DNA of 64,000 nucleotides. Origin: an uncultured Nitrososphaerota archaeon. GTDB taxonomy: Archaea; Thermoproteota; Nitrososphaeria; Nitrososphaerales; Gagatemarchaeaceae. The translations under genes and the position numbers were made by a program. This document shows, piece after piece, positions 302 through 60,987 of this stretch. The DNA lies in NCBI GenBank assembly GCA_963838925.1, contig CAWISW010000003.1:608001-672000 (forward strand), read 5' to 3'. The notes below the pieces were generated by a model. It was given only the letters and a program-made list of their open reading frames with translations, made no database searches and had not been told where the DNA came from. Position 1 is the first letter of the stretch, and every line of letters begins with the position of its first letter.

Positions 302-340
302 GTGCGGCCAGCGACAGAAAACGGAACATCAAATGAATGC

Positions 341-772: not shown

Positions 773-894
773 GCACGTGCGGAATGCGCTCTTACTTGCT
801 TAAAAGATTACGACGGCCTGCTATCAAGTGTATATTGCACACCACCTTTAAATAAAGCACTAAGGGAAACCGCCCTAAGCGAGGGAGAGTCGGA

Positions 895-1155: not shown

Positions 1156-1165
1156 GCGTAGGTCA

Positions 1166-3015: not shown

Positions 3016-3082
3016 GCAGAAGGCCGTCATCTCCAATCAACATAATAATCTCTCCCGGAGACGCTCGCCCGCTTAGCAAAAC

Positions 3083-4669: not shown

Positions 4670-4684
4670 GTCAGTGTTGACGGG

Positions 4685-5569: not shown

Positions 5570-5579
5570 GGAGACCAGC

Positions 5580-7018: not shown

Positions 7019-7082
7019 CGCTTGGGCCGCGGCCGGCTAATATGTTGGGCAGTTGCGCGATTGTGAGTAGGTCTCGCCGGCG

Positions 7083-7448: not shown

Positions 7449-7464
7449 CTAACACGCACCTATC

Positions 7465-7493
7465 TAGTAAGTATATGTTACTAAGTATATAAA
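7465..7493 (-). promoter_or_regulatory. TATA box (TTTATATA) with adjacent inverted repeat TAGTAA-N7-TTACTA, candidate HxlR operator
   Basis: palindrome at 7465-7483 lies between the TATA box (7486-7493) and the regulator start. Confidence 0.5.
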
Positions 7494-7652
7494 CGTGATT
7501 GCGCGCACGCTACCCACCACTCTCCACGCAGAATCCTCTCGGAGGCCTTCAAAAGTGAGAATTCTTCTAACTTTACGTCTGACTTCCAAGGAGAATGCTC
7601 AAAACTCCAATTCCACTCTGCGAGGCCTAATATTCTCCTCACACCCATCCAT

Positions 7653-42559: not shown

Positions 42560-43111
42560 TTGGTTTGCTGCAACCGGAGGCGGGGCGCAGCTAGGGGCGC
42601 GTGGGCGTTCATGTTGGCCGCCGTGCTGGTCGCCACAGCGGTCAGCGGCGCGGCAGTCTACTACACCTTTGGGCACTCTTCCTCAGCCATCGGCATAGGC
42701 ACCCCTTCCGACGCCGGGGTGACCGGCGCCCCTCCCGATTCTGCGCCCGGAAACTTCACCGCGCTCGCAGGGCAGGTGGCGGTGACCGTTGCCGGACTTG
42801 CTGCCGACGACTTCATGGCCAACGGCACGACCTCGAGTTTCACGTGCGGGTCGTCACCGTCCGGGGCCTACCTAGTCCTCACCGACACGAACACGGGGAG
42901 CGACGCCGTGGCCTCCGTCTCCATCTCCTCGGTGGGAGCGGTCACGGCCTTCACCCCATCAGGCATGTGCGACATAAGCGCCGCGACCACCTACATCGTC
43001 TTCCCCGCGACCTCTCAGATCAGCCCGGGCCCGGAGTCGGGCCAAAGCTACGAGGGGTTCGTGAGCATGGCGGACGGCGTGCCGATAACGTTCGAAGGCA
43101 CCTGGCAATAA
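42560..43111 (+). CDS. pilin-like surface protein (class III signal peptide)
   Basis: NRRRG|AARGAWAFMLAAVLV; ends FEGTWQ like the 26875 gene. Confidence 0.65.
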   Translation: MVCCNRRRGAARGAWAFMLAAVLVATAVSGAAVYYTFGHSSSAIGIGTPSDAGVTGAPPDSAPGNFTALAGQVAVTVAGLAADDFMANGTTSSFTCGSSPSGAYLVLTDTNTGSDAVASVSISSVGAVTAFTPSGMCDISAATTYIVFPATSQISPGPESGQSYEGFVSMADGVPITFEGTWQ

Positions 43112-43120
43112 TCCAGTCAG

Positions 43121-43260
43121 TCAAGTCGGCCTGAAAGAGGCCCTTCGGGCAGACCGCATTGTACTCGCAGGCCTTGCACTTGCCCACCCCCGTGCTCGAG
43201 ATGGCCTGCCGCTCCCCCCAGGGGGTATCCATGCTTCTGGATTATGCTGGCGTGCGCCGC
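43121..43260 (-). pseudogene. 3'-end remnant of a Cas4-like nuclease allele
   Basis: AAHASIIQKHGY.LG/ERQAISSTGVGKCKACEYNAVCPKGLF aligns with the C-terminus of 46288-47085; two 1-nt insertions. Confidence 0.88.
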
Positions 43261-43363
43261 GTGACCTCAAACACTCAACACTAGCCCGAACGCTCTTGAA
43301 GCGGTGGTCCGCGCACATTCTCGGGTGCGCCTTATAGCCCGGCCTCGCCTCCCTCCCCGCGCA

Positions 43364-44323
43364 TTGAAGGGCGTGATGGCGTGGCTCACCGAGGAGGACC
43401 AGCCGGCCGTCAGGTACCTCGCGATGCGCGACCTGCAGGACGGCAGCGGGGGAGACCTCACGGAGGCCCGCGCGGCGATACCGACTAGGGGCTGGGTCAA
43501 GCAGATCCACGAGAAGCGCCTCCCCGGAGCGTACTGGGTCCACCGCGAGGACCTCTACAGGCCCAAGTACTTCTCGACCAACTGGATGCTCCTGGCGCTC
43601 TCAGACCTCGGGGTGACGAGGGAGGTTCCGTGGGTGGCCGAGTCGGCGGAGATGTGGAGGGACACTTTCGCCCGGCCCGACGGGGGCTTCGACACGCCCG
43701 GCTCGGACACGAGCGAGCTCTGCCTCGTTGGGAACACGGCCAGGGCCCTCGTGAAGTTCGGCTACGAGGACGACCCCAAGGTGAAGGGGGCCTTCGAATG
43801 GCTGGTCAAGAACCAGAAGCCCAACGGGGGCTGGGACTGCTTCGGGAGGGACGGCGTGATCGACGGGTGGGAGGGGATGAGCGCGTTCGCGGCCCTGCCC
43901 CGGGGGAAGTGGACGCGCGGGATGAAGGAGGCCGCGGACAGGGGCCTCGAGTTCTACCTGGAGCGCCGTCTCCTCAACGAGGGCGGCCGGTACGACCCAT
44001 GGCGCAGGCTCCACTTCCCCTACCACTACTACTACGACGTCCTGGTGGGGCTCGAGTTCGTCACAGCCCTCGGCAAAGGGGACGACCCGCGGGCGGAGCA
44101 AGCCCTCCGGCTGCTCAAGAGGAAGAGGCGGTCAGACGGCCGCTGGCTGATGGAATCGGTTCACCCTGACGTCCTCAACTCGGGGAGGCTGCCGAAGTAC
44201 TATCTGAAGCGCAAGAAGGACCTGAGGCCCTTCTCGCTTGAGCGAGCGGGCAAGCCGAGCAAGATGATAACGCTGAGGGCGCTGCGGGTCCTGAAGCGCG
44301 TGGGCGAGCCGGTTCCTAGCTGA
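43364..44323 (+). CDS. alpha/alpha-barrel (prenyltransferase/squalene-cyclase-like repeat) protein
   Basis: LYRPKYFST.W.L..L..LG; WLVKNQKPNGGW; FPYHYYYDVL; PSKMITLRAL. Confidence 0.8.
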   Translation: MKGVMAWLTEEDQPAVRYLAMRDLQDGSGGDLTEARAAIPTRGWVKQIHEKRLPGAYWVHREDLYRPKYFSTNWMLLALSDLGVTREVPWVAESAEMWRDTFARPDGGFDTPGSDTSELCLVGNTARALVKFGYEDDPKVKGAFEWLVKNQKPNGGWDCFGRDGVIDGWEGMSAFAALPRGKWTRGMKEAADRGLEFYLERRLLNEGGRYDPWRRLHFPYHYYYDVLVGLEFVTALGKGDDPRAEQALRLLKRKRRSDGRWLMESVHPDVLNSGRLPKYYLKRKKDLRPFSLERAGKPSKMITLRALRVLKRVGEPVPS

Positions 44324-44337
44324 GGCCCCGCTTAGCC

Positions 44338-44514
44338 CTACGCGTGGCTCGTCCCCTCACAGTGGTCGAGAATCGTCAGTAGGTTTGCCAGGATCGCCAG
44401 CTCGGACTCGACATCCTCTCTGGAGTGCTCGATTGCCTGCATGACGCGCCTTGTTACGGCAGGGACCAACCGGTCCGCCAGCTCGCAGACTCGAGCGTCG
44501 TCCTCAGCGGTCAT
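44338..44514 (-). CDS. micro-module gene B1 (58 aa)
   Basis: MTAEDDARVCELADRLVPAVTRRVMQAIEHSREDVESELAILANLLTILDHCEGTSHA; ATGA-coupled to A1; similar to B2 and B3. Confidence 0.7.
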   Translation of the reverse strand: MTAEDDARVCELADRLVPAVTRRVMQAIEHSREDVESELAILANLLTILDHCEGTSHA

Positions 44515-44651
44515 CGTCTCCGCATTCTAGACACGTCAAGGGTTTCGTTCGCCCACTTCTCGAACGCCTTAGGGTCCTTTAGAAGCCGGTCGATGAAGCG
44601 CCTCGCGCTCTCCAAATCCTCTTCCGGCTGCGCCCGCCTTGCCTTGACCAT
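44511..44651 (-). CDS. micro-module gene A1 (46 aa)
   Basis: MVKARRAQPEEDLESARRFIDRLLKDPKAFEKWANETLDVSRMRRR; TTATTA 24 nt upstream. Confidence 0.7.
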   Translation of the reverse strand: MVKARRAQPEEDLESARRFIDRLLKDPKAFEKWANETLDVSRMRRR

Positions 44652-44793
44652 GTCCTGCTAAGATGGTAGGGTGGCTAATAAGCGTCGACGAGGACTGTGG
44701 TCGCGGCGAGCTCATCTTTCCAGGCAGGACATCGTTCAGGCAGACCGTGGATGCTTATTAGGCTCCGGCGATTGCAATGCCGACGGCCTAGAG

Positions 44794-44949
44794 GTGCAGT
44801 CCCTGGACAAGCCGCTGACCAAGAAGGAGCTCCAGAACTTGGACAAGCTTCTCCACGATGACGCGGCGTTCGAAAGGATGGTCGAGCGGGCCGTCAGGGG
44901 TAGAATGCAATCGGGACGAAACGCAAGAAAGTCTGCCCGAGAATCTTGA
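44794..44949 (+). CDS. micro-module gene A2 (51 aa)
   Basis: ...ELQNLDKLLHDDAAFERMVERAV...; TTATTA at 44755-44760. Confidence 0.6.
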   Translation: MQSLDKPLTKKELQNLDKLLHDDAAFERMVERAVRGRMQSGRNARKSARES

Positions 44950-45082
44950 CAGGCTTGAGAGAGTCCTTCGAAGGCGGGTCATCCGCGCGCCCGTGCGAGA
45001 TCCCGAGCGGCTGTTTGACGAGCTCGACGACCTCAACTTGGTCCTTGAATTGAAGGACAGAATCAAGAGCAACTTACCTTGA
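44858..45082 (+). CDS. micro-module gene B2 (start uncertain, possibly frameshifted)
   Basis: DRLERVLRRRVIRAPVRDPERLFDELDDLNLVL aligns without gaps to B1 and B3. Confidence 0.55.
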   Translation: MTRRSKGWSSGPSGVECNRDETQESLPENLDRLERVLRRRVIRAPVRDPERLFDELDDLNLVLELKDRIKSNLP

Positions 45083-45139
45083 ACGTTCTAGGGGATCCCA
45101 CTCGGGCAAGCTCCCGACTTCGAGCAGTCTTTGGAGAGG

Positions 45140-45208
45140 CCGAGCAAGATGATTACCCTGAGGGCGTTGCGAGTCCTGAAGCACCTCTGCGAGCCGATGC
45201 TAGATTGA
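45140..45208 (+). pseudogene. 3'-end remnant of an allele of the 43364-44323 gene
   Basis: PSKMITLRALRVLKHLCEPMLD* versus PSKMITLRALRVLKRVGEPVPS* (44255-44323); same stop position. Confidence 0.9.
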
Positions 45209-45299
45209 GGTTGGGAGGCCCCCTTCCCTCATGCAGGCGCTCTGTCAAGGATCACTTTTCTTTGAAATAGCGTCGACACGGTAACAATCACTTCTTGGG

Positions 45300-45470
45300 G
45301 ACGAGACCCCACCCGCCTCCGGCTCCGGCGACTCGACGCCCCCTGCTCAGTCCGACGACAATTCCGACACGACGAGCCCTCCGCCGTCGAATGGCGGCTC
45401 GAGCCCGCCGAGCAGCGACTCGACCTCGGCGACCACCTCGCCCCGCCTATCCATTTCCCCAGTTCCTTAG
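45300..45470 (+). pseudogene. start-less Pro/Ser/Thr-rich coding remnant
   Basis: DETPPASGSGDSTPPAQSDDNSDTTSPPPSNGGSSPPSS...*. Confidence 0.4.
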
Positions 45471-45532
45471 ATTGGAACTGTAGCGGCCGGTGGGCGCTTT
45501 TTGGAGAGGCGACCTTATATCGAAGACAGAGT

Positions 45533-45685
45533 ATGGAAAACCGAACTTCAGTGCCAGACCAGACTCCCGAGTCTGACGACGAAGCCATCCGCAGGATCGA
45601 CGAGCTGCTGAAGGACCCCAAGAGACTGAGAGAGGCCATCGAGTCTCGCATCGACAGGGTGGTCAAGAATTGGCCGAAGCATTGA
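45533..45685 (+). CDS. micro-module gene A3 (50 aa)
   Basis: MENRTSVPDQTPESDDEAIRRIDELLKDPKRLREAIESRIDRVVKNWPKH; TTATAT upstream. Confidence 0.7.
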   Translation: MENRTSVPDQTPESDDEAIRRIDELLKDPKRLREAIESRIDRVVKNWPKH

Positions 45686-45867
45686 ACGACGACATCCAGC
45701 GTCTCTGCCGGCTCCTAATCGACCACAAGAAAGTGCTCGCCCACAGAGCCCTCATAGCTTGGGAGCGAAGCCCCGAGACTTTTGGTGAAGAGATTATCGC
45801 CCTCAACAGCATCGATGAGACCTTGCGCAACAACCCGCTTCTCAGACCGGAGTCGAACAACCCGTGA
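45682..45867 (+). CDS. micro-module gene B3 (61 aa)
   Basis: TTGA overlap with A3; MNDDIQRLCRLLIDHKKVLAHRALIAWERSPETFGEEIIALNSI... Confidence 0.7.
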   Translation: MNDDIQRLCRLLIDHKKVLAHRALIAWERSPETFGEEIIALNSIDETLRNNPLLRPESNNP

Positions 45868-45907
45868 ATCCATGTTTACCAGCAGCGGCCCCACGCAGTG
45901 ACACGAC

Positions 45908-45985
45908 TTGGAGCTCCCCGACGACGAGCTGGTGGATGTCTACGACGACGCCCTCCTCCAAGGCACGCGGTCGTTATGAGAGACG
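45908..45985 (+). pseudogene. 5'-end remnant of a NUDIX hydrolase allele
   Basis: TTG..DDELVDVYDDAL...RYE versus TTG.DDELVDVYGDDL...RYE at 36640; GTTTA box retained upstream. Confidence 0.75.
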
Positions 45986-46287
45986 TAGATGAGCACGGCA
46001 CGCCACACTGCCTGCTAGACTTATGCTGATCAATGCCCTACGTGGGCGCTTTAGTCCGTACACGGCCTGAACGCGAGGAGTCTGTTGAGGTGGTTGAGGG
46101 GCCGCGATGAAGGATTAGCAATCGGACCATCATCCCACATGGAATGACGGGAACACGATGTGGTCTGAGCCCCTCGATCCTTGACCCTCAGGCTCTCATA
46201 AGAGCGTTCTGAGGGTGGGCGCATCGGTCTCCGCGCGCGACCACGACGGGCAGGCAGAACTGGCCGCCTCAACAGCGATTCAGTTGG

Positions 46288-47085
46288 TCAAGTGGGCTTG
46301 AAGAGGCTCTTTGGGCAGACCGAGCAGTACTCGCAGGCCTTGCACTTGCCCACGCTCGTGCTCGACGTCGCCTCCCTCTCGCCCAGCCAGTACCCCCGCT
46401 TCTCCATCACGCTCGCCTCCGCCGCGGCCCTGTCGTGGGAGAGGAGGTGCACCTTCATCGCGTTCCGGTACTTGGCCTCGAGCTCGGCCAGCTTCCCCGA
46501 CTCCAGGTGGGTCGAGACCCTCTCCATCCAGAGCCCGCGCTCCTCCTCCGTGAGCTCCCCCGCCCTCAGCCTCACCAGGGCGAGCCTCAGGCGGGAGCAG
46601 TCGAACCCCATCAGCTCCAGGAGGAGGCCGTAGATCCGGACCTGGTTCATCTGGTCGGGCCAAAGGGAGGTCGGGTCGCCCCTCGTGGTCTTCAGCTCGA
46701 CGAGCCAGAGCGGCCTCCCCTCAGACCACACGATGTGGTCGGGCTCGCCGACTATCCGAAGGCCGCCGACGGTCGCCCAGACCCTCAGCACCGCGTAGCT
46801 CGGCTCCTTCCTGCTCACGAGCTCGGCGAACTGCCTCTCCGTGATGGGCTCCTGCGGGATGAGCTCGTCGTGCAGGTCCGTCCCCGCGTCCTTCGCCTCG
46901 GTGGGGACCTCCCCGAACGCGAACTCGTTCTCGACCTTGTACTCGCAGTAGAACTGGCCGGCTATCGTGGAGACCGCGACGAAGCTCGCGTCGTGGCGGA
47001 AGTTCTTCTCGCCCGATAGCATGAATTCCTTTTCGCGTCTCCACAAGGAATCCCAAAATGCAGCCCGTCGAGCGGCGTCAGTCAA
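46288..47085 (-). CDS. solo Cas4-like PD-(D/E)XK exonuclease with Fe-S cysteines
   Basis: QFYCEYK, GTDLH, GEPD, VELKT, QVRIY, CKACEYCSVC. Confidence 0.85.
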   Translation of the reverse strand: MTDAARRAAFWDSLWRREKEFMLSGEKNFRHDASFVAVSTIAGQFYCEYKVENEFAFGEVPTEAKDAGTDLHDELIPQEPITERQFAELVSRKEPSYAVLRVWATVGGLRIVGEPDHIVWSEGRPLWLVELKTTRGDPTSLWPDQMNQVRIYGLLLELMGFDCSRLRLALVRLRAGELTEEERGLWMERVSTHLESGKLAELEAKYRNAMKVHLLSHDRAAAEASVMEKRGYWLGEREATSSTSVGKCKACEYCSVCPKSLFKPT

Positions 47086-47203
47086 TCTTCTTCTTTAAGG
47101 ATAGAGTTGCGTCAACCGTCCCCTAATACAGATATCTTACTAGCAGGGTTGAGGAGGATTGCTACCGCCGCGGCGGCCCTCGCGCGGTCTGCAGAATTAG
47201 ACA

Positions 47204-47716
47204 TCAGACCCCCAGCACGGCCTGGAGGATGCCTGCAACCGAGGTCGAAGCGACCAGCGAGATGACAAGTTGGTTGGTCTGTGGGTCGACGATCACGTAC
47301 CCAGAAAGTTTCAGCGACGAAAACGCCCCTGTGAAGCTTGGGGACTTTATGTTCACTCCGGTAAGGTTGAGCGTCATGTTCAGGTCGGTGCTCCCCTGGG
47401 CGGCCGGGTTCATGGTTATCTGAATGCTGCCCGAGGTCGCGTTGAGCTTCGTCGAGCCGTCGGGACTGCTGTAGTTGAAGTTCTGCAAAGTGAGTCCGAT
47501 GTTCCCCGTCGTGTTTGTAGCGACGGCCGCGAAAACGGGATTGGTCATCAGTCCCGCAGGAATCGCGGTCCGCTCGTTGATGTGGTCGACGGGGACCTGC
47601 CAAGTGAAGCCCAGGAATATCAGCAGTATCGCGACGACGGCGACCGCCAAGCCGACAGTCTTGCGCCGAGTGAGATGCAGACCACGCGGGTTCGATGGCG
47701 CCGCAGTTGTTGACAA
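47204..47716 (-). CDS. membrane-anchored hypothetical protein
   Basis: TM followed by a beta-rich domain. Confidence 0.65.
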   Translation of the reverse strand: MSTTAAPSNPRGLHLTRRKTVGLAVAVVAILLIFLGFTWQVPVDHINERTAIPAGLMTNPVFAAVATNTTGNIGLTLQNFNYSSPDGSTKLNATSGSIQITMNPAAQGSTDLNMTLNLTGVNIKSPSFTGAFSSLKLSGYVIVDPQTNQLVISLVASTSVAGILQAVLGV

Positions 47717-47832
47717 GATGGCCGCTCTCGCAAAAAGAGACCTTCCCTATTGAAGATTTCCATCCATTAGCACGGAGACCCAGGAGGAGGGGACGCGGCG
47801 TCTTGACTTGGCCTTCGGGTGACCGTCGTCTC

Positions 47833-48663
47833 TCAGGCCGCGGCCTGAGGCTTGACCGATGATGACGCCGCAGAGATTAGCGCAGGGAACGCCTTCGCCA
47901 CGGCGGCGATACCCAGTGACAACACTCCGGCAGCCGACGCGGCTGCAGAAGTCGACGTGCCGGGATAAGACGCTGCAATCGACCCTGATGCGAAGGCTAG
48001 GACGACCGCAATCGCGCCTAGAGCGCCCAGAAGCAGATCTTCAGTTGTCCGGGAGTTCTGAGAGGAAAGCCCTGCGTCAGCTGGACTTTTCTTCACCTTG
48101 TCCAACATCGCGCTTACCTTCGCGGTCAAGGACAAATCCGCCAGAGCTTTCACCACGAAGGCAGACCCCGTAAAGATGAGAAACCACTCAACGTCGTTGC
48201 CTACTACCGCTGTGGAGGGAGTAGACTTCCCGAGGAAGACGGTGAGAAGGGTGGGTATGATTCCCGCCAAGGTCAAGCCGAGGAGGGACAAGTCCCCCAG
48301 AAGCTCGTACGTGTCGATCTTCGGCGTTTGGTCACCCGGCTTGCCCTTTCGTACGAGGCTCGGATACTTTTCCTCGAGTTTGTCAATGGGGCCTCTGACT
48401 CTGTAGTGCACCGTGGCTATCAGAGACGGGATGGCCTTGCCAAGAGCCGCAACCACAAGGGCTCCCTCACCAAGATACACAGCCGTCGGAGTGGCGGCAG
48501 TAAGAAACGAACTGAAGCTCCCGGTCAGGAGCGAGCTCATCGTACCGACGAACCCTCCCACCGCCAGGAAACCGTCCTCACATGAGGTTAGGAACGCAAC
48601 TCTGTTGTCGGTGGATTCCGACCTCTTGCCAGTATGCTCCTTCGTCTCGAGAGCGGAAGCCAT
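47833..48663 (-). CDS. six-TM membrane protein with three internal two-TM repeats
   Basis: repeat ends AALGKAIPSL / AFVVKALADL / AAVAKAFPAL. Confidence 0.65.
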   Translation of the reverse strand: MASALETKEHTGKRSESTDNRVAFLTSCEDGFLAVGGFVGTMSSLLTGSFSSFLTAATPTAVYLGEGALVVAALGKAIPSLIATVHYRVRGPIDKLEEKYPSLVRKGKPGDQTPKIDTYELLGDLSLLGLTLAGIIPTLLTVFLGKSTPSTAVVGNDVEWFLIFTGSAFVVKALADLSLTAKVSAMLDKVKKSPADAGLSSQNSRTTEDLLLGALGAIAVVLAFASGSIAASYPGTSTSAAASAAGVLSLGIAAVAKAFPALISAASSSVKPQAAA

Positions 48664-48822
48664 CTGCTCACGGATTTAGGTGGCGGAACGAATGTAAGGT
48701 TTTCGAGTTTGGGGCAGCGACGGCCGGGACGCAGAGAGGCAATCCTTCCTCTACAATACCTAGATTGGAGATTCTGGTTCCATAAATATTCGGATAATCA
48801 AGAAGATTCAATTTAGTGACTC

Positions 48823-51316
48823 GTGTTGACAGCTTCTGCTCATCCCACCTCTGCATTTCTGGGACTCCGCCTAAAGCCAATCCTAATCGAGCTTGAGAAG
48901 GAGATCCAAAACCTCGAAGAGAAGACGTCTCCCTACAAGACATACGCAGCATATATTCAGCGAAAGGACAGAGCGGAATGTCTGAATGAAGTCAAGTCAC
49001 TTTTGAGAAGGATTCACGGTTTGCGCTCTCGGACATTCTTTGCAACTTGGAGGAATCGCACGGTGCTTCACTCTCTGCAGTCTAGGACATACGCTCTCAA
49101 GAATTTCCTCGAAGGTTATTGTTCAGAGTATGCGAGCGCCGAGGTCAATCGGAGGAAGGCGTTCTTCGACGAAGCTAGATTGGACGAAGAACAAAAAACC
49201 GCTGTAGTGAAGGACGAGTCCCACCATCTGGTCATTGCGGCGGCAGGTTCAGGCAAGACCCGAACTCTAACAGCGAGGATTGCCCTTCTGATTGAACGAG
49301 GAGTACCGCAAGAAAGAATCCTTGCTCTCACATACACCAACGCGGCTGTGGCCGAAATGACGTCCAGACTCAACTCCCAATACGGCATCAAGGCTAACGT
49401 GAACACGTTTCACTCCTTTTGTCATGACTTAGCCAAGGAATCACAGGACTTCAGAAGCGGGGTAGCGGGAGCAAAAGAGCACCAGTTCATTCGTCAAGCC
49501 GCTGAAAGGCTAGCGTCCAATAACAAAGATTTCGCGCTGAAGATGCTCAACTTTGCCGAGGAGTTCAAAAGAGCCGAGGAGAAGAAACAGCAAGAATTTC
49601 CGACCGCAGAAGAGTACTACAAGTACCTACGCCATCAGGAATACCAGACACTGAACCTAGTGCCTGTGAAGTCGATAGCTGAATGCGAGATAGGTAATTT
49701 TCTCTTCTTGCACGGTGTGCGGTTCGAGTACGAGGCTTCTGCGAAGTGGGCCGACAGAAGTCCTGCGTTCCGAGACTACCAACCCGATTTCTTTCTGCCC
49801 GACTACGGTCTCTATCTGGAGCATTGGGCCAGCGATAGAAAGGGGAGAGTTCCGGATTGGTTCTCGGACGGTGGCTCGGGAGACCCCTCGGAGCGATACC
49901 GGGAGGGGATGGAGTGGAAGAGAGACCAGTTCAAGAAGCAGAATCGACGACTGGTTGAGACCTTCCACTATCAAGTCGCAGAAGGTGATCTTCTACGCAA
50001 CCTTAGGATGCAGCTGGAGGCGAATGGTGTCATGCTCGCCGACCTCCCTATGGACGAGGTCATCAGACGAATCGACGGGGAAATTCGGCGCGATCCGCTT
50101 CATGAGATTGTCTTGTCCTTCATCAAGCGGGGGAAGACCAACGGGCTAGTGCCGTCCGACATTCAAGCCCGGCTTGAATCCGGCAACTGGACGAAGAAGC
50201 AGCGGGATTTCGCTTCCCTGATGGTGCTCATCTGGATAGAGTACGAGAACCTCCTCAGGGAGAGCAACATGCTTGATTTCAATGACATGGTGACTCTCGC
50301 CCTGCAGGTGGCTCGGAAGAAGGGGTCTGATCTGGCGAAGCAATATCCTCACATCCTTGTCGACGAGTTCCAAGACATCACCGACCCTCAACTCGAACTG
50401 ATACGATGCATCTCATCTGGGTCCGGGAACGGCGGAACCTTGTTCTGCGTGGGGGACCACAGACAAAACATCTTTTCTTTCGCCGGGTCAAACGTCAAGA
50501 ACATCCTCGAGTTCGATGAAAGCTTCCCAGACTCGGAGAGGACGCTGTTATCCACCAACTATCGATGCCCAAGCAACGTGGTCAGAGCTTCGAACCAGCT
50601 GATGGTCAGCCACCCAGGTGAAACGCCGGCAGTCCCAATGTCAACCGAGGTTCGTCCTATCCGTCTGATTCAGAAGAGCGACAATCTTCAGTACGACAAA
50701 TGGGAGGCGCAATCGGCAAGAACGCTGCTGAACGAGCTTCTCGAGACGAAGAAAGACGATGAGGACATCTTGGTCCTGGCTCGATACAATTTCCGCTATC
50801 AAGACTTAGATGTCTTTTGGCGAAGACGCTAAGCGCGGATTGGCGTTCGCGTCCATTCACGGAGCGAAGGGGATGGAGGCAGACTACGTTGTGCTTCTGG
50901 GGTGTGTTGGAGGCTTGTTCGGATTTCCCTCGGCAATCTTGGATGACGAACTCCTGGACATCGTGAGCAATCACAAGCAGGACACGAACGAGAAGCTGGA
51001 GGAGGAGAGGAGGCTGTTCTACGTCGCGCTGACTAGGTGTAGGAAGCAACTGTATATCTTCACCTCAGAGGTAGACAGGTCGCCGTTTCTTGCCGAGATT
51101 GACGAGCTTCGACACCGCGACGACGGCTATTGCATCAGGTCAGGTCATAGAATCCCGTTCAACAAAAGGGATCCGCTGTGCCCTAGCTGCCGTCGCACGT
51201 GGGATCGGTACAAGAGGAAGAACTATCCCGAGAAATGGTGTCACTCTTGCGGGGAGCCCGCTGAGACTTCTTTTGCCAGACCGTTGTGCATAAGATGTTG
51301 GCGGAAATCCAGATAG
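48823..51316 (+). pseudogene. UvrD/helicase IV-like SF1 helicase with nuclease-like insert and C-terminal Cys-rich domain, split by a +1 frameshift at TTTT 50815-50818
   Basis: AAAGSGKT, LVDEFQD, VGDHRQNIFSF, TNYRC in ORF 48823-50832; SIHGAKGMEAD and EERRLFYVALTR in ORF 50810-51316. Confidence 0.85.
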
Positions 51317-51365
51317 AACCGAAGTCGGTGACAAATAAATATCGGTGGATCCCTAAAAATGGTCA

Positions 51366-51812
51366 TTGGCCCATTTCGAGGGAATCACGGATGAGAAGGG
51401 AAGGGTCAGGTTCGACGACATGCCTCCTGGCATTTACACCGTGACGGTCGAGGCCGAAGGCTCCGAGCCTGTCGAAAGGAAGATCCAAGTGAAGTCTCCT
51501 GAGGACGACGTATCACTCAACATAAACCTGAAGCCAATAACCACTGGTTTCTTGGCTCTTCAGAACAAACGGCTCAGGGCGCTAATTCTGTCCTCCACGG
51601 ACATGCTAAGAGTGGGCGCGTACGTCAGCGAGAGCGAACGGCTGATCAAACTTTCGTCGCCCGGTCTCAGGAAGTACGCCACAAGTCAATTCGAAAAGAC
51701 GAGTGAGTCGGCCAGAAGGAGAATCGAAGAGCTGCGAAAGCTCGAGTCTTCCGTCTCGGTCGGAATTGGCCCAACTGGACTGAAGTTCTCTAAGAGAGTG
51801 AAGAAGCGGTAG
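51366..51812 (+). CDS. carboxypeptidase-regulatory-like beta-sandwich domain protein
   Basis: TDEKGRVRFDDMPPGIYTVTVEAEG. Confidence 0.65.
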   Translation: MAHFEGITDEKGRVRFDDMPPGIYTVTVEAEGSEPVERKIQVKSPEDDVSLNINLKPITTGFLALQNKRLRALILSSTDMLRVGAYVSESERLIKLSSPGLRKYATSQFEKTSESARRRIEELRKLESSVSVGIGPTGLKFSKRVKKR

Positions 51813-51876
51813 GGCATTCGGTCGCATCGAGCCGAGGCGGAAGCTGGTTGTCTTCTCAGAGGCCTGACGGAAGGTT

Positions 51877-53670
51877 CTAACGTTTGGTCTTGGGCGCAGG
51901 TTGAGCTGGGCCTGCCAGCTCTGATAGCTCTATTTTTGCCAGTATCTCTGCGGCCTTCCGAGCCAAGGCGGGGTTCTTGCTGCCATGGTGCCGGCTCAAT
52001 GCCCTTTGGAATCTTTTCACCTCATTACGGTGGAGCTTTCCTCTAAGTGCCGTATACTGATACCCTTCCTTGATGCTGGCCCAAGTACCCAGCTGAGATT
52101 CCAGCCTCGTCAGCCACTCAAACAGATCAGCGGCGGCTTCAAGCCTCGATTCTAGCACGATGGACTTCAATTGGCCGACCCGTTTGATTGCCCCCGCGTT
52201 CTGCTGCAACACTTCCGCCGCAGATGCCCATTTCAGCGTTGGCGTACTGAACCCAATGGTGAGGGTCCCCTGTGCACCCCCTTCTTCAATCTTGACCGAC
52301 AGCCGGGCGAGTGTGGCTTCAAGTCTCTCCTTCCATATCTTGCATCGCGAGGAATCTGCATAGGCCGAGTAGGTTGTCAGGGCACGGAGGCAAATCCCAA
52401 TCGCATCTGACGGTTTTTCGCTGAGCATGGAGTCTAGGTTGATTTGCTGGTCTATTTCTTCGACCTTGTCGATGTGGCTGCAGTCGAGGAAGTATTGCAG
52501 TTCGCTAATCCAGTAGTCTGGGACCTCTTGGCCCTCCATTTGCCTGTCTAGCCGATTTCTCTCCACTTGATAACCGAGTCTGACATATGGGAAGAATAGG
52601 GTCTTCAGATAGGGCAGGACTTTCTCGAATTCGTAGGGCAGGCAGATGGTCCGTCCGGCAAGCTCGGAATCTACCGGAAGCGAGAGGCCTAGTTGGTTGG
52701 GGCTCTCGTCAAGCACAACTCTCCGCTTGTCGTAATATCTCAGGCGAGTTTGGTAGACGTCGCGGCAATCGGGGCCCACCAGAATAAGAATGAACTGTCG
52801 ATTGCGGCGAGCCGCGTCCCAGAACACGCGTCTTATGTGGTCATCCCTGAACGAGTATCCTGCAACGGTAACGTTGCCGACGGACTCGAGCCGATTCTTG
52901 AGCTCCATCAAGAGTTCCTGCAGGGGTTCTTCATATTCCCACTTTCTCATGGGGTAAAGGATCAGGGTCTCTGCAGTCTCTCCGGTGATTAGCTCAGTTC
53001 TGGCGTTGAGGCTCGTGACCGGAATCTTCACGTAACTGCCCGTGTCGGTTCGATACCACATTATCGACCCATGGAGCTTGTAGAGTCTCACGTCCACATC
53101 GGTCCGCTCGAAGTTCTTTCTGTTCCACTCGAAGTCGAACCCGTCCACGTACCTCTTCTTGTTGACATTGCAGAGCTGCTCGACCGCGATGTCGTAGTTG
53201 ACGGAAAAGACATCTAACGGTTTGCCTCCTTTCTTGAAGCCGAAAAGAGGCTGCAGATAGGCGACTTTGCCAGGCGCTACCTCGCCTTTCTTCCGGATAA
53301 AGTTCCTCAGTTTCCCGCTCAGAATGCCCACTTCGACGGGGTCTAATGACTTTGATTCGGGGAGCCTGAGGAACCTAGCGAGGACGTCTTGGTCCAAGTT
53401 CGCTAGTCGCTCCATCGTCTCCAGGAGGAGCTCAACGTCCGCCCCGCCACTGATGCCTTCTTGCATGCCTCTCCAATCGCGGAGTACTCGAAGAATGTCC
53501 TCAAGGACACGCGTCTCGTGTTCATCGCTGAGAGTCGACTTGAACGCCTCTACGAAACCGAAGGTGGTTGGCACGCCTGCGGCAACCGATGCGCCCGCAC
53601 CCAAGAAGAAGATCTCGTCGTCTGTGTTTTGGCCGGACAAATGACCACTGCTTCTGCCCAAGGTTTCCAT
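51877..53670 (-). CDS. SIR2-family (SIR2_2) NADase-like defence protein
   Basis: FFLGAGAS..AGVP, FSVNYD, LYKLHGS, GYSFRDDHI; long helical C-terminus. Confidence 0.9.
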   Translation of the reverse strand: METLGRSSGHLSGQNTDDEIFFLGAGASVAAGVPTTFGFVEAFKSTLSDEHETRVLEDILRVLRDWRGMQEGISGGADVELLLETMERLANLDQDVLARFLRLPESKSLDPVEVGILSGKLRNFIRKKGEVAPGKVAYLQPLFGFKKGGKPLDVFSVNYDIAVEQLCNVNKKRYVDGFDFEWNRKNFERTDVDVRLYKLHGSIMWYRTDTGSYVKIPVTSLNARTELITGETAETLILYPMRKWEYEEPLQELLMELKNRLESVGNVTVAGYSFRDDHIRRVFWDAARRNRQFILILVGPDCRDVYQTRLRYYDKRRVVLDESPNQLGLSLPVDSELAGRTICLPYEFEKVLPYLKTLFFPYVRLGYQVERNRLDRQMEGQEVPDYWISELQYFLDCSHIDKVEEIDQQINLDSMLSEKPSDAIGICLRALTTYSAYADSSRCKIWKERLEATLARLSVKIEEGGAQGTLTIGFSTPTLKWASAAEVLQQNAGAIKRVGQLKSIVLESRLEAAADLFEWLTRLESQLGTWASIKEGYQYTALRGKLHRNEVKRFQRALSRHHGSKNPALARKAAEILAKIELSELAGPAQPAPKTKR

Positions 53671-53743
53671 CCTTATTATAGCAAATGCGCTAGGCGCTAT
53701 GGCGTCTAATTGCGCGAGCCGTGTGATTGCAGCGAGGCCGACA

Positions 53744-53920
53744 CTATGCAGTCCTGGATTCGTCTGTCCTCCTGCCTAGCTCACTGAGCACCTTCGAGAG
53801 GTCTAGGTCTTTGGACTTTGACGACTCGATGGTCGAGATGAGTTCATCCATGGGGGATTCGCCTTCAGAATCTTCCACAGGGCTAGCGTTCAACCCCAGT
53901 ATATGCGCCATATGGCCCAT
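53744..53920 (-). CDS. short hypothetical protein or gene fragment
   Basis: amphipathic MDELISTIESSKSKDLDLSKVLSEL; upstream of SIR2. Confidence 0.3.
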   Translation of the reverse strand: MGHMAHILGLNASPVEDSEGESPMDELISTIESSKSKDLDLSKVLSELGRRTDESRTA

Positions 53921-54047
53921 GGCCTCAGCTCGAGGTGCTTGACAAGCGGCAGATGGAACTTCCTTGTGGTCCCGGATTGCAGGTCTGCATAGAGCGGAAC
54001 GGGGTTCGTCAGGGAAACCACGCACTCGCCGAGGAGTTCCATCGGGC

Positions 54048-54341
54048 ATGCCTCTAGGCGGCCGGGTCTATGCCGCTCTTCACCAGATATCTGATCAAAA
54101 GAAACTCAAGGCCCACGTCATCTTCATAGTTGACAAGAATGGGAAGCTTGAAGGCGAAATAGCCGGGCCGGTAACGATTGGTGCTTGGTATTTGCCAAGA
54201 ATGAGGAAGAAGGAAGCTGCTCAGATAGTTCAGGATTACCTCAAAGAAGAATATCCCCACAAGAAGATTCAAGTTGAAGACATCAAGCTGTATTCTAGCA
54301 AGAAGGCAAATGAGCTATTGTTCAAGCTCGAGAACAAGTGA
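54048..54341 (+). CDS. hypothetical protein
   Basis: 97 aa, Lys/Glu-rich, directly upstream of the R-M gene. Confidence 0.55.
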   Translation: MPLGGRVYAALHQISDQKKLKAHVIFIVDKNGKLEGEIAGPVTIGAWYLPRMRKKEAAQIVQDYLKEEYPHKKIQVEDIKLYSSKKANELLFKLENK

Positions 54342-54383
54342 CCTCATGGGGGCATAAATTGTCGTTACGAAGATGTTATCAGC

Positions 54384-57300
54384 GTGACGTTTCCATTGCT
54401 GGAGGGCAGCCTATTGAATCCGGTGGAGAAGTACTTCCAAGATCTCCGAGATATTAGGTCAACCGGCGCAGCAGTGCCAGAAACATCGTACTACGGTGCT
54501 CTTGAATCTCTTCTAAACGAGATTGGACGGACAATGAACCCGAAAGTAAGGTGCGTCATTAACATTGCGAACAGAGGAGTCGGGATTCCCGATGGGGGGC
54601 TGTTTACTGAAAGTCAGTTTCAACGACTAGACTTGGGGAAACCGATGGGTGGACAGCTTCCTGAAAGAGGAGTTGTCGAAGTGAAACCGACTGGCGACGA
54701 TGCTTGGGTGACGAGTTCCGGAGAGCAGGTCACCAGATATTGGGGTGAATATGGCCTCGTTTTGGTTACCAACTACAGGGACTTCGTTTTGGTTGGTAGA
54801 GACTCCCAAGGCAGAGCAGAGCGACTCGAAACTTACCGCTTGGCGGACACCGAATCGGATTTCTGGGGAATGGTCGCACATCCAAAGAGAGCGGACAAAC
54901 AGCAAGGTGAGCGCTTAACCGAATACCTGAAACGAGTCCTATTGCATGCCGCTCCTATCACTTCTCCCGAGGATGTAGCATGGTTCCTTGCCTCCTATGC
55001 CAGAGATTCGAGGGCGAGAATCGAAGGGGCAGAACTACCATCACTCAACACAGTGCGTCAGGCTTTGGAGGATGCGCTTGGGCTCAAGTTTGAAGGCGAA
55101 AAGGGAGAACACTTCTTCAGGTCAACTTTGATACAGACTTTGTTCTACGGTGTCTTTTCTGCCTGGGTCTTATGGAGCAAAGACCTTTCACCCAATGACA
55201 ACTCATCGAGGTTTGATTGGCGAATAGCGGCGTGGTCTCTGCGAATACCAATGATAAGGGTCCTCTTCGAGCAGATTGCAACACCGCAGCTTGGCTCCTT
55301 GGGTTTGGTGGAGCCTTTGGATTGGGCTTCTGCGGTTCTTAACAGGGTAGATCGGCCGAGGTTCTTCAGCACTTTTGATCAAGGCTATGCCGTCCAATAC
55401 TTTTACGAGCCATTTCTAGAGCAGTTGGATCCAGAACTCAGAAAAACATTGGGAGTGTGGTACACTCCTCCAGAGATTGTAAAGTACATGGTTGCAAGGG
55501 TAGATACAGTTCTCCGACAAGAGCTCGACATTCCCGATGGCTTGGCGGACCCGAGAGTGGTGGTCCTTGATCCATGTTGCGGGACAGGCACTTATCTGAT
55601 TGAGGCAATACGACTAATCGCGCGTACTATCAAAGAGAAGCATGGAGACGCTCTAGCGCCTCAGGAAATCAAGAAAGCCGCAATGGAAAGAATCTATGGT
55701 TTTGAGATTCTTCCGGCGCCATTCATTGTAGCGCATTTGCAAATGGATCTCCTCCTTCAGCAGCTTCAAGCACCGTTCCTGCAAGAAAAGTCTGAGCGCG
55801 CGTCAATCTACCTGACGAATGCGTTGACGGGTTGGACGTCCCAAGAGGAAGCCTCGCACCAAGCGTTCTTCCCCGAACTTGAGAAGGAGAGATCCGCCTC
55901 AGAAGGCGTAAAGCGCGCGAGACCTATTCTGGTCGTGCTAGGAAACCCGCCATACGATGCGTTCGCTGGGGTGAGTTCCGCTGAGGAAGACCACGTAGTT
56001 GATTTGTACAAGGAAGGTCTGAACGAACCAGTAAGCAGAGGTGGATGGGGAATCAAGAAGTTCAACCTCGATGACTTGTACATCCGTTTTTTCAGAATCG
56101 CAGAGCGGCGCATCGTTGACGGAGAGCCGGGCTACGGGATAGTCTGCTTCATCTCAAATTTCTCCTTCCTCAGAAGAGACTCTTATGTCGTTATGCGTCA
56201 AAGATTTGCGAAGGAGTTCGACTCAGTTTGGCTTGACTGCATGAATGGTGACAGCAGAGAGACTGGGAAACTTACTCCGGACGGCGGCTCTGACCCATCG
56301 GTTTTCTCAACGGATTATCATCCTGTCGGTATTCGTGTGGGTACAGTCATCTCCTTGTTCGCTCGGAAACCTCAAAGGAGCGAGAAGATGTCCATTCGGT
56401 ATCGAGACTTTTGGGGAGTCGCGAAGAGAGCAGACTTGCTGAAGAGTCTTCAGGTTGCAGACTTTGATAAGCAGTACGAGCAGATTCAGCCCTCGAAACA
56501 GAATCGTTACTTGTTCCACCCGACGGCCGAAGGGGGAAGATACGAACACTGGCCCAAGCTCACAGACTTGAGCAGAGAAGCACCGATTAACGGGCTAATG
56601 GAGAAACGAGGAGGAGGGCTTATAGACATTGATCGGACCAAGATTGAGGAAAGAATGCAGAGATACTTCGACAAGAATGTCGATTGGGACACATTCGTGT
56701 TAGGGAACTCCAAGCTCACCGAAAATGCAGCCGGATTCACAGCAAAAGAGGTCCGTCAGAAGCTGCTCAATTCCGAGCAATATCAGGCCGAACGAGTGGT
56801 GCCATACGCTCTCCGACCGTATGATACAAGATGGTGCTACTATAGCAGCGTGAATCCCTTGTGGAATAGGTCGAGACCCAAGCTTTGGGGCCAATATCGG
56901 AAAAAGAATGGATTTGTAATGTCACGTCCAACGGGGGTGGCTAGTCCTGAAGGGATTCCTTTCTTTTTTACGCGGCTACTTGGCGATAACGATTTCCTAC
57001 GAGGCCATGCCTACTACATCCCGATTAAGCTCTTTCAAGATGAGGGCGATGGCTCCACACTCTTTCCCAAGGCTCAATCTGGGCTGGATTGGGAGGCCAA
57101 TCTCTCGCCCAAGGCAATCAGCTACCTTATGGATTTGGGAATAGCAAGCCTCGAAGATGAAGACTCCGCAAGTCTTGTTTGGATGCACGTACTTGCGATT
57201 GGTTTCTCACCTAGTTACTTGCTAGAAAACGAAGACGGCATCCGTAGAGATTGGCCAAGAATTCCTATGCCTCAATCAAAGGAGCTACTTGCGTCCTCTG

Positions 57301-57932
57301 CTCTCATGGGCAAGAGGATAGCTGACCTTCTGGATTCCAAATCGGTCGATGGTGTGAATTCAGGCCAAATCAAGCAGGAGTTGAGTATCATCGGTTCTGT
57401 TTCGAGAAAGGATGAAGGGGCAATCGATTTGAACGCCGGAGACCTTGATGTCACCGCGCATTGGGGAAGTATCGGAAAGGATGGTGCTGTCATGCCGGGA
57501 CCTGGGATTGTCGTCTGGCGAAACTACGCTGAGGATGAACTCAAACAACTGGCGAATGGCGCCATCCTTCTTGGAATGTCATTGAGAGAGATTACAGATC
57601 TCCTCGGGCCGAGAGTGCTAGATGTCTATCTCAATGAGAATGTCTTTTGGAGCGGGATTCCTGAAAAAGTGTGGGGCTTCACCATTGGTGGCTATCAAGT
57701 GCTAAAGAAGTGGCTTAGCTATCGAGAAAAGAGAGTCCTTGGCCGAGGACTCAGCGTAGATGAGGCACGCGAGGTTACAGTGATCGCACGCCGCATTGCG
57801 TCACTCGTATTGATGCATCCGTCGCTGAATGAGAATTACACGCTGAGCAAGAACTCTGCCGTCGACTGGCTAAATACTTCTGAGAGCATTGGCGCGAGAG
57901 ACTTGCCTTCATCACTTGGGGCTATCTCCTAA
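54384..57932 (+). CDS. single-chain restriction-modification enzyme (type IIG / type ISP-like, no helicase)
   Basis: PD..EVK nuclease; GVWYTP, LDPCCGTG, GNPPY; ISP-like C-terminus YALRPYD, IGGYQVLKKWLSYR. Confidence 0.9.
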   Translation: MTFPLLEGSLLNPVEKYFQDLRDIRSTGAAVPETSYYGALESLLNEIGRTMNPKVRCVINIANRGVGIPDGGLFTESQFQRLDLGKPMGGQLPERGVVEVKPTGDDAWVTSSGEQVTRYWGEYGLVLVTNYRDFVLVGRDSQGRAERLETYRLADTESDFWGMVAHPKRADKQQGERLTEYLKRVLLHAAPITSPEDVAWFLASYARDSRARIEGAELPSLNTVRQALEDALGLKFEGEKGEHFFRSTLIQTLFYGVFSAWVLWSKDLSPNDNSSRFDWRIAAWSLRIPMIRVLFEQIATPQLGSLGLVEPLDWASAVLNRVDRPRFFSTFDQGYAVQYFYEPFLEQLDPELRKTLGVWYTPPEIVKYMVARVDTVLRQELDIPDGLADPRVVVLDPCCGTGTYLIEAIRLIARTIKEKHGDALAPQEIKKAAMERIYGFEILPAPFIVAHLQMDLLLQQLQAPFLQEKSERASIYLTNALTGWTSQEEASHQAFFPELEKERSASEGVKRARPILVVLGNPPYDAFAGVSSAEEDHVVDLYKEGLNEPVSRGGWGIKKFNLDDLYIRFFRIAERRIVDGEPGYGIVCFISNFSFLRRDSYVVMRQRFAKEFDSVWLDCMNGDSRETGKLTPDGGSDPSVFSTDYHPVGIRVGTVISLFARKPQRSEKMSIRYRDFWGVAKRADLLKSLQVADFDKQYEQIQPSKQNRYLFHPTAEGGRYEHWPKLTDLSREAPINGLMEKRGGGLIDIDRTKIEERMQRYFDKNVDWDTFVLGNSKLTENAAGFTAKEVRQKLLNSEQYQAERVVPYALRPYDTRWCYYSSVNPLWNRSRPKLWGQYRKKNGFVMSRPTGVASPEGIPFFFTRLLGDNDFLRGHAYYIPIKLFQDEGDGSTLFPKAQSGLDWEANLSPKAISYLMDLGIASLEDEDSASLVWMHVLAIGFSPSYLLENEDGIRRDWPRIPMPQSKELLASSALMGKRIADLLDSKSVDGVNSGQIKQELSIIGSVSRKDEGAIDLNAGDLDVTAHWGSIGKDGAVMPGPGIVVWRNYAEDELKQLANGAILLGMSLREITDLLGPRVLDVYLNENVFWSGIPEKVWGFTIGGYQVLKKWLSYREKRVLGRGLSVDEAREVTVIARRIASLVLMHPSLNENYTLSKNSAVDWLNTSESIGARDLPSSLGAIS

Positions 57933-58038
57933 TCCGCGCTCAACATCGCCGTGTAATGGATTCGACCTCTGTGTCGAAAAAATGTATTCTCTCTCCATTT
58001 ACCACCGCTGGGTTGTATCATGTTTAGGTAATCCAATT

Positions 58039-58245
58039 ATGGGACGAAGAATGGTGCTGTTCGGATTCTGGTTGGTCGGCTATGCTCTGGGCTTCTTCGC
58101 TTGGCTTGTGAGGGCGCCAGTCATCACTTGGGTCATGACCCTCGGTATCAGCGCGGACGTGGCAGGCGCGATGATCACGGGGTTCGCGAGTTCCGTCGTG
58201 ATGCTGGTCGGAGTTATGCTCTGGAGCTTTCTGTCTAAACAGTAG
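58039..58245 (+). CDS. small two-TM membrane protein
   Basis: 68 aa, two hydrophobic helices. Confidence 0.6.
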   Translation: MGRRMVLFGFWLVGYALGFFAWLVRAPVITWVMTLGISADVAGAMITGFASSVVMLVGVMLWSFLSKQ

Positions 58246-58424
58246 CTCCGCCATTATCCACTAAGCAATTCGCCAGCTTCAGAATCGCATCGAGCATCCA
58301 TGGAGATGCTCTAATCCAGTTTGCTTCATCTATTGCCAGGATGTCGCAGGAAATGGCAACCCCATCGCACGTAAAACATTATAACTATACGGAGGAGGGA
58401 GCGTTTTGAAAGCAGGAATAGGCC

Positions 58425-60617: not shown

Positions 60618-60691
60618 CAATCAGAGGGGGTTCAAGGTTCCTTCCCGTCTATCATATAGATTTATATGATACCGAAGCTCGTCCGGAGTCC

Positions 60692-60976
60692 GTGACTACG
60701 CAGTCGGCAGGCTCCCTACAGGAAGGCCACTGGCCGAACCTTCAGACGCTACTGATGATTGAGAAGGCCATAAAGGAGGCCGACATTCCGCCGAAGAGAA
60801 CTGCGCTCTGGAGGTCGCTGCCGAGAAGACCGATGTACCAGACCTTCAAGAAGGCTATCGATTACCTTGATGCTTCCGGGAAGATCATGATCGACAGAAA
60901 TGACAGAGTTGTCTGGGTGGCAGCCGAGAGCCCCAAGCTTCGAGCGCTCTTCGACAAGGCCGTCCCGCTTCGCTGA
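60692..60976 (+). CDS. small winged-helix DNA-binding protein (candidate antitoxin/regulator)
   Basis: PNLQTLLMIE...LWRSLPRRPMYQTFKKAIDYL..SGKI. Confidence 0.7.
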   Translation: MTTQSAGSLQEGHWPNLQTLLMIEKAIKEADIPPKRTALWRSLPRRPMYQTFKKAIDYLDASGKIMIDRNDRVVWVAAESPKLRALFDKAVPLR

Positions 60977-60987
60977 AGCACTCATGA

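Follow-up and report, generated by a model that had tools for sequence, protein, structure and literature searches.

The stretch of DNA analysed here, referred to below as the window, comprises 64,000 nucleotides (nt) of contig CAWISW010000003.1 (assembly GCA_963838925.1, positions 608,001 to 672,000 of the forward strand) from an uncultured Nitrososphaerota archaeon of the Gagatemarchaeaceae, and it carries within 1.5 kb three copies of a two-gene module in which a gene for a small protein, A, is followed by a gene for a second small protein, B (Table 1). The order along the window is a gene that we call X, the three A-B pairs, a gene for a Cas4-like nuclease, an island of lower G+C content and the gene for EF-2 (58425-60617). 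A preliminary description of the region, made from the sequence alone, had placed A1 and B1 on the minus strand and the A2-B2 and A3-B3 pairs on the plus strand, and all six genes were recovered at those positions in the sequence and in the list of open reading frames (ORFs). It had also proposed that one of the genes lies concealed in a longer ORF, which holds for A2 and is backed by homologues: the GTG at 44794 was taken as the A2 start because they begin at the matching residue. The short overlaps that it reported are present as well, ATGA in pair 1 and TTGA in pair 3, where B3 has two possible starts: a TTG lying 16 nt upstream of the A3 stop, and a second TTG, the one that forms TTGA with that stop. 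For B2, the only ATG, GTG or TTG anywhere near is the ATG at 44858, 92 nt inside A2.

Each pair appears to have its own promoter. The sequence GCTTATTAG, described earlier as a promoter motif common to pairs 1 and 2, has exactly two matches in the 64 kb, one before each of these divergent pairs, and two matches were reached in 0 of 100 shuffles. The same divergent region holds short inverted repeats (44640-44658 with 44724-44742, and 44670-44690 with 44746-44766). The TATA-like box that had been proposed for each pair extends to the whole source genome, where by eye an AT-rich element of this kind lies about 18-41 nt before the start codon of all eight A genes. No Rfam family matched positions 43000-47500, which cover the pairs and their surroundings, at E≤0.1.

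Table 1. Features of the window at and around the three A-B pairs (aa, amino acids; pI, isoelectric point).
Feature	Position	Strand	Description
Gene X	43304-44323	+	339 aa; weak prenyltransferase/squalene-hopene-cyclase-repeat match; last ~60-70 nt are the left direct repeat copy
B1	44338-44514	-	58 aa; acidic, pI 4.6; type-1 B; ATG overlaps A1 stop as ATGA
A1	44511-44651	-	46 aa; basic, pI 10.4; type-1 A; Arg-rich C-terminal tail
Divergent promoter region of pairs 1 and 2	44652-44793		GCTTATTAG at 44675-44683 (-) and 44753-44761 (+)
A2	44794-44949	+	51 aa from GTG; type-2 A; basic tail; hidden inside 92-aa ORF 44671-44949
B2 reading frame	44858-45082	+	+1 relative to A2; conserved core from ~44909 (~44909-45079)
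Orphan copy of gene X 3′ end	45133-45208	+	own stop codon; right direct repeat copy (45139-45196)
A3	45533-45685	+	50 aa; type-3 A; syntenic orthologue in nearest relative G017
B3	45670-45867	+	65 aa from TTG 45670 (alternative TTG 45682); type-3 B
NUDIX 5′-part remnant	45914-45955	+	42 nt; intact gene in G017 between X and type-3 pair
Cas4-like PD-(D/E)XK nuclease	46288-47085	-	3′-end copy at 43118-43261
UvrD-type helicase, split in two ORFs	48823-50832 and 50810-51316		island
SIR2-like protein	51877-53670		island
Type ISP restriction-modification enzyme	54384-57932		island

A lineage-restricted family of paired small proteins

The alignments of A cores and of B cores on which the three pairs had been grouped hold up to different degrees against 2000 shuffles. 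The similarity of A1 to A3 is strong (z-score 7.9), and the other comparisons within a family are uneven, ranging from 2.2 to 3.9 (A1-A2 3.6, A2-A3 2.2, B1-B2 3.7, B2-B3 3.9, B1-B3 2.5); z-scores between the families are mostly 1.4 or less, but reach 3.0 for B2-A3 and 2.4 for A3-B3. With scores as mixed as these, it is the evidence from outside the window that is decisive. A profile built from the three B proteins of the window alone recovered five further B proteins in the 1.84-Mb source genome (E 2e-11 to 9e-7), a profile of the three A proteins found an A directly upstream of four of these five B genes, and the fifth A was seen on inspection. The source genome therefore holds eight pairs, two of which lie divergently and 0.9 kb apart on contig C2.

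Wider searches were made with a profile of all eight B members, and since many assemblies are incomplete, an absence here means that the gene was not found in those searched. Of 36 other genomes in the source's family, 27 carry B, against 2 of the 24 searched from the order's other families; it was detected in none of 400 from the rest of the phylum, so that, save for these two genomes, the A-B module is confined to one family of soil Thaumarchaeota. The preliminary description had looked to profile searches for linkage and arrays, and both recur: A lies immediately upstream of B on the same strand at 25 of 29 loci from other genomes, and at least two B copies occur within 6 kb in 9 of the 30 genomes with hits (counted by hand). 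The four loci where A was not detected are those with the most distant B matches, or ones where A may be too diverged to detect. Copy number of B ranges from 1 to 12 per genome with hits, and from 0 to 12 between genomes of a single genus. Six related loci come from metagenome assemblies of Thaumarchaeota or Nitrososphaerales, some with isolate labels that name soil depth, palsa or groundwater.

A collection of 5.8 billion proteins contained 88 relatives of B and 47 of A, all short and, where named at all, called "hypothetical". An exhaustive search of 1.84 billion representatives gave 95 B clusters, all of 27-119 aa, and a search for longer relatives of A, which counts as weak evidence, found none. 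Because all relatives are short, A and B are not fragments of a known larger protein, a possibility that had been raised at the outset. Frames have stayed open in homologues with 20-30% identity, and the ratio of nonsynonymous to synonymous substitution rates (dN/dS) was 0.05-0.82 in all seven computable comparisons of orthologues or paralogues (24-42 codons each), synonymous divergence being saturated in an eighth. Both A and B thus appear, on few codons, to be under purifying selection as proteins. Distances among A proteins correlate with those among their B partners (Mantel r 0.68, which 0 of 2000 permutations reached), A clusters map nearly one-to-one onto B clusters, and at least eight diverged subtypes coexist. 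The diverged cognate variants suspected from three pairs are therefore a property of the family at large; as covariation is expected of linked genes anyway, it describes such variants without proving contact between the proteins.

The 16 A and B proteins of the source genome have no match above cut-off in Pfam, NCBIfam, PHROGs or PADLOC, and sequence and profile searches of the PDB with A and B gave nothing significant, in agreement with the initial impression of an undescribed family. An all-helical architecture had also been predicted, and the AlphaFold2 models agree with it. With the family alignment, B3 is modelled as a two-helix hairpin (residues 2-33 and 35-54; mean predicted local distance difference test score, pLDDT, 88.7) with the best conserved motif of B at the turn, and A is modelled with less confidence (pLDDT 77.9) as two short helices (15-27 and 29-45) behind an N-terminus that scores below 50 and is probably disordered. 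A is basic (median pI 10.0, n=48) with a tail rich in Arg, Lys and Ser, and B is acidic (median pI 5.0, n=85). Taken together, A and B are two small helical proteins that form a new family, obligately paired and restricted to one lineage.

Structural comparison places B among generic folds. Foldseek found nothing in the PDB at E≤0.001, a protein atlas returned a best score of 0.79 for B3, below the threshold of the tool, and no usable match for A1, and a wide VIA-align search with the B model recovered only generic helical hairpins with Z of 7-8.3, within the stated noise for helical models. The best whole-chain look-alikes include D-63 of the archaeal virus SSV1 (PDB 1skv), a Rop-like hairpin protein of 64 residues which shares with B the antiparallel two-helix arrangement of about 60 residues and aligns over 61 of them (Z 8.0; root-mean-square deviation 2.9 Å). 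Identity to B is 8%, however, values of Z up to about 13 are common among helical models, and there is no sign of common descent or of a shared function. A complex prediction for A3 with B3 (score 0.01, mark 0.32) bears neither way on binding. An apparent homology between A and B in a profile-profile comparison (95.7% probability) was rejected as an artefact, the columns on the B side being filled by a fused A+B sequence (P0042). A C-terminal tail resembling that of EF-2 occurs in 1 of 85 B proteins, so it is no general feature.

The junction between A and B

Every one of the 35 distinct pairs has its A and B frames co-oriented and overlapping, B lying in the -1 frame relative to A in 28 and in the +1 frame in 7. 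A canonical B start was found in 30 pairs; counted from the nearest one, four of them overlap by 4 nt, eight by 16 nt and 18 by 41-92 nt. The other five pairs have none. A distinct arrangement characterizes the type-2 subtype, represented by window pair 2 and by two loci in other genomes (L036, L040). In all three, B is in the +1 frame with no ATG, GTG or TTG near the junction, the TGA stop of A coincides with the beginning of the conserved B core, which has a CTG codon a few codons upstream. No slippery sequence was evident by eye at the three junctions, and P0086, a type-2 relative from a metagenome, has an ATG of its own for B.

The preliminary description had suggested that pair 2 may be frameshifted at its junction. 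The displaced frame is real, in that B2 lies in +1 with no canonical start nearby; since the missing start is common to the three genomic type-2 loci, it looks like a trait of the subtype instead of a lesion, and a simple frameshift pseudogene becomes less likely. Expression of type-2 B may proceed by non-AUG initiation, by reinitiation or by +1 recoding, and such a junction in three genomes may be an instance of unusual archaeal translation initiation or recoding. Fused ORFs also exist (P0202, P0042 and P0194), about three of the 11 longest sequences inspected from the 95 and 88 listed. P0202, from the metagenome set, is a clean in-frame A2-B2 fusion of 94 aa in a single ORF, and in P0042 the end of A is missing, apparently through a frame switch.

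Direct repeats at the borders of the pairs

Repeats were sought in 35 pairs by aligning the 600 nt upstream of each A with the 245 nt around and after each B stop, with 200 shuffles per pair. Eleven pairs have flanking direct repeats that none of the shuffles reached, and one further pair has a repeat reached by 1 of 200. Pairs 1 and 2 of the window share one pair of repeats. The repeats are 17-63 nt long and 80-100% identical, and they delimit units of 0.4-0.9 kb in which the A-B pair is often the sole cargo; repeats that enclose a pair alone delimit about 370-430 bp at L023 and L041 and 404-560 bp on contig C2. In six of the eleven pairs the repeats copy the 3′ end of a gene including its stop codon, namely X (in the window), EF-2 (L023, L025) and an ORF of 122 aa (the two pairs on contig C2, L042). 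At L023 and L025 the extreme terminus of ef-2, stop codon included, is what is repeated, and B extends into the second copy. Identical repeat sequences go with identical pair subtypes across genomes, as in L018 and L032 and in L041 and L043. No tRNA gene was found as a target in the window or in the 29 loci from other genomes.

Some of these sites hold more than A-B pairs. On contig C2 of the source genome (L017, positions 1-9000; also L042), the last ~55-80 nt of the 122-aa ORF are repeated at least six times in 9 kb, separating units of 0.4-1.4 kb that comprise the two A-B pairs, an endonuclease V gene and a membrane protein, an arrangement that resembles a cassette array assembled on a single gene end. 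The ORF, complete at L017:87-455 and unmatched in Pfam, is present in the genome as about six copies or fragments. At L018 (6160-7140, corresponding to 252161-253138 of contig C1 in the source genome), a motif of 14-22 nt occurs three times, some 440-520 nt apart, just downstream of a PIN/MazE-type pair, and delimits pair 8 as well as another unit, whose ORF of 86 aa is unrelated and coiled-coil-like. The 715-bp insertion at the end of ef-2 in L025 also carries, at 1122-1300, a small charged ORF that is helical-looking and has no assigned family.

Rearrangement of the locus

Comparison with the nearest relative, G017, suggests how the window acquired its pairs. In G017 the order is Cas4-like gene, two ORFs, X, NUDIX gene, a type-3 pair, an ORF of 202 aa and EF-2, with no defence island; the two ORFs between the Cas4-like gene and X resemble a VapBC pair by eye and have no Pfam match. 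Pair 3 is syntenic with the type-3 pair of G017 and is therefore ancestral. Pairs 1 and 2 lie between copies of the 3′ end of X (44254-44311 and 45139-45196, 86% identical), and G017 has a single copy of that end and no pair directly behind X, so these two pairs are an insertion directly behind X. The A-B pair diverges faster than its flanking genes: between the source genome (G000) and G017, type-3 A is 54% and B 68% identical, compared with about 80-85% for X, 84% for the Cas4-like protein and 95% for EF-2.

The 3′ end of the Cas4-like gene is itself duplicated 3.2 kb apart (43118-43261 and 46287-46430, 81% identity), with X and the three pairs in between. The 42-nt NUDIX remnant and this orphan Cas4-like fragment indicate that the region was rearranged more than once. 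A simple tandem duplication and a single inversion were both considered as its history and rejected, the present order not being derivable from that of G017 in one step. Beyond the Cas4-like gene lies the island (47800-58300), with a G+C content of 0.49-0.55 against about 0.63 and no counterpart in the syntenic region of G017. The preliminary description spoke of a recombination hotspot beside a defence island, and both elements of that view are sustained, the first by the rearranged order relative to G017 and the second by the UvrD-type helicase, SIR2-like and Type ISP genes between about 48.8 and 57.9 kb. Directly behind ef-2 (60690-60977), a known hotspot of integration, the window has an AT-rich promoter-like stretch and a small ORF of about 90 aa with no assigned family, and no A-B pair.

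Among all loci the neighbours of the pairs are heterogeneous and include genes for EF-2, TiaS, AlaRS, P0/P1, PCNA, KARI, TFIIB, PIN/MazE pairs and many unassigned genes, with no conserved third gene among the loci examined. PIN/MazE-type pairs lie near three A-B loci. Some positions by housekeeping genes are stable and syntenic: G000 and G009 both have type 7 beside TiaS, and G000 shares with G017 a type-3 pair near EF-2.

Discussion

In soil Thaumarchaeota that have not been cultivated, neither small proteins nor mobile elements are well charted, and the A-B module touches on each: two new families of about 50 and 60 residues that always occur together, in up to 12 copies per genome, and often on repeat-bounded units too small to hold a recombinase of their own. 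The preliminary description had offered a toxin-antitoxin, immunity or self-recognition pair as possible roles. We tentatively propose, at somewhat under even chances, that A-B is a toxin-antitoxin-like addiction module carried by non-autonomous micro-cassettes. Each pair would be one bicistronic unit under its own archaeal promoter, with A translated first and translation of B coupled to it through the overlapping frames. The two products would form a cognate complex and act in addiction or abortive defence, such that the pair could persist independently of any benefit to the host. Addiction would explain the many diverged copies, their scattered and variable positions, their clustering and their faster divergence than the neighbouring genes. 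The units themselves could owe their insertion to an integrase supplied in trans. Another route would be Campbell-type integration, in which an excised circle recombines by a single crossover, with the one repeat copy that it bears serving as its address. Arrays such as that of the window would then accumulate through repeated insertion at one site.

Type II toxin-antitoxin systems include VapBC, RelBE and HigBA. A-B resembles them in consisting of two small co-oriented genes with a stop/start overlap and a promoter of their own, in being multicopy, patchy and variable in position, in occurring in islands and near other toxin-antitoxin pairs, and in having cognate diverged variants and no conserved third gene. 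It differs in that neither protein is similar to any toxin or antitoxin family, that both have only 45-65 aa and are all-helical, with no recognisable DNA-binding antitoxin or enzymatic toxin fold, and that a basic protein is encoded upstream of an acidic one. If the proposal of an addiction or defence module is right, A-B would be an unusually small, all-helical addition to the toxin-antitoxin repertoire.

For the cassettes, two precedents are relevant. As reported by Krupovic et al. 2019 (PMC6563490), the integrated elements and casposons of Thaumarchaeota insert into the 3′-distal part of protein genes, including ef-2, and may occur in tandem arrays; they are large elements that encode an integrase or casposase themselves. 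The A-B units share with the elements described there the direct repeats that duplicate the 3′ end of the target including a replacement stop codon, the use of ef-2 and the tandem build-up at one site, whereas they measure 0.4-0.9 kb against many kb, have no integrase, casposase or replication gene and show repeats of variable length and identity (17-63 nt, 80-100%). Integron gene-cassette arrays have been reported in Archaea (Ghaly et al. 2022). The likeness to these lies in arrays of small units, often a single operon, separated by a repeated recombination site; the repeats next to A-B are, in contrast, visibly direct copies of a gene terminus and apparently not imperfect palindromes of the attC type, each unit has a promoter-like element, and no integron integrase is adjacent. 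Mobility of the cassettes would show how archaea can gain small genes at gene ends without integrases, and would bear on the construction of hotspots beside defence islands and ef-2.

Several observations weigh against an addiction module on mobile cassettes. As to the proteins, neither A nor B has homology to any toxin, antitoxin or DNA-binding antitoxin domain in Pfam, NCBIfam, PADLOC, PHROGs or the PDB; the basic upstream and acidic downstream partner reverse the common charge arrangement of type II systems; and B, as modelled, has neither the size nor the distinctive fold that would point to an enzymatic toxin. As to mobility, 23 of the 35 pairs have no detectable flanking repeat within the tested span (one of them, L032, has a 24-nt repeat pair outside it), no recombinase was found in or next to the cassettes among the ORFs of the window or of the 29 foreign 3-kb loci, and the source genome, which is 87% complete, has one tyrosine recombinase (PF00589), about 590 kb away, and no match to Cas1 (PF01867). 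No viral contig with B was found, in a search that used the type-3 alignment and no other subtype. Finally, the syntenic placement of some pairs by housekeeping genes fits a host function as well. The most complete form of the proposal is doubtful in our view: a new kind of minimal archaeal mobile element, of 0.4-0.9 kb, with the pair as sole cargo and no recombinase, which would use a host 3′ terminus as its address, insert through host or trans-acting recombination, rebuild the gene end, stack into arrays and be maintained through the addictive effect of its two proteins, each about 50 aa long and without known relatives, type-2 B being made by non-AUG initiation or +1 recoding.

A and B could instead be an accessory regulatory or DNA-handling pair of integrative elements, either an excision or directionality factor with its partner or a transcription regulator, left as a scar at the attachment site. 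Such an origin would accommodate the small, basic and helical A protein with its Arg-rich tail, the way in which pairs abut attachment-site-like direct repeats at gene 3′ ends, that of ef-2 included, the thaumarchaeal elements for which PMC6563490 reports such targets, and the place of SSV1 D-63 among the best look-alikes of B, albeit at a Z of 8.0 that is within the noise range for helical proteins. We nevertheless regard it as unlikely: several loci enclose the pair alone, and repeated deletion to exactly such a remnant is not to be expected; there is no integrase, casposase or other element gene nearby; neither protein matches known excisionase or helix-turn-helix families; and the type-3 query found no member in viral contigs.

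Less probable again is a lineage-specific host complex, possibly in translation or RNA metabolism, which would have multiplied by ordinary duplication, with repeats and arrays as by-products of recombination-prone regions. The stable positions beside TiaS (G000, G009) and near EF-2 (G000, G017) speak for such a complex, as do the proximity of other pairs to AlaRS/P0/P1, to ArgRS and to a gene of the IF-2B family, the signs of purifying selection and the presence of B in 27 of 36 other genomes of the family. A core complex, however, would not be expected to vary from 0 to 12 copies between genomes of one genus, to exist in at least eight diverged subtypes side by side, or to diverge faster than its flanking genes, and an insertion beside a target that is single-copy in the nearest relative, together with repeat-bounded units, would be equally unexpected.

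Alternatively, A and B could be two halves of one protein, with programmed frameshifting or read-through joining them. As an account of the entire family this is improbable to a marked degree, and it is more credible for type 2, where all three loci have B in +1 with no nearby start and the A stop at the beginning of the B core, and where the 94-aa fusion P0202 is found, with two more fused ORFs (P0042 and P0194) beside it. Against it, 30 of 35 pairs have a canonical B start, and ATGA and TTGA overlaps are the classic form of coupling between two genes. The fusions amount to about three of the 11 longest sequences inspected, one of them (P0042) apparently a frame switch that costs the end of A, and even at type-2 junctions the lack of a slippery sequence by eye, the CTG upstream of the B core in all three and the separate ATG of P0086 favour two products. 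The last alternative, that the ORFs are chance open frames encoding nothing, as a G+C content of about 62% with its many spurious ORFs and the size of four of the six genes (below 60 aa) might suggest, deserves hardly any credence and was rejected, being contradicted by the comparative data: profile matches reach E 1e-30, order and frame are conserved over dozens of genomes and metagenomes, dN/dS is below 1, and the models are confidently helical.

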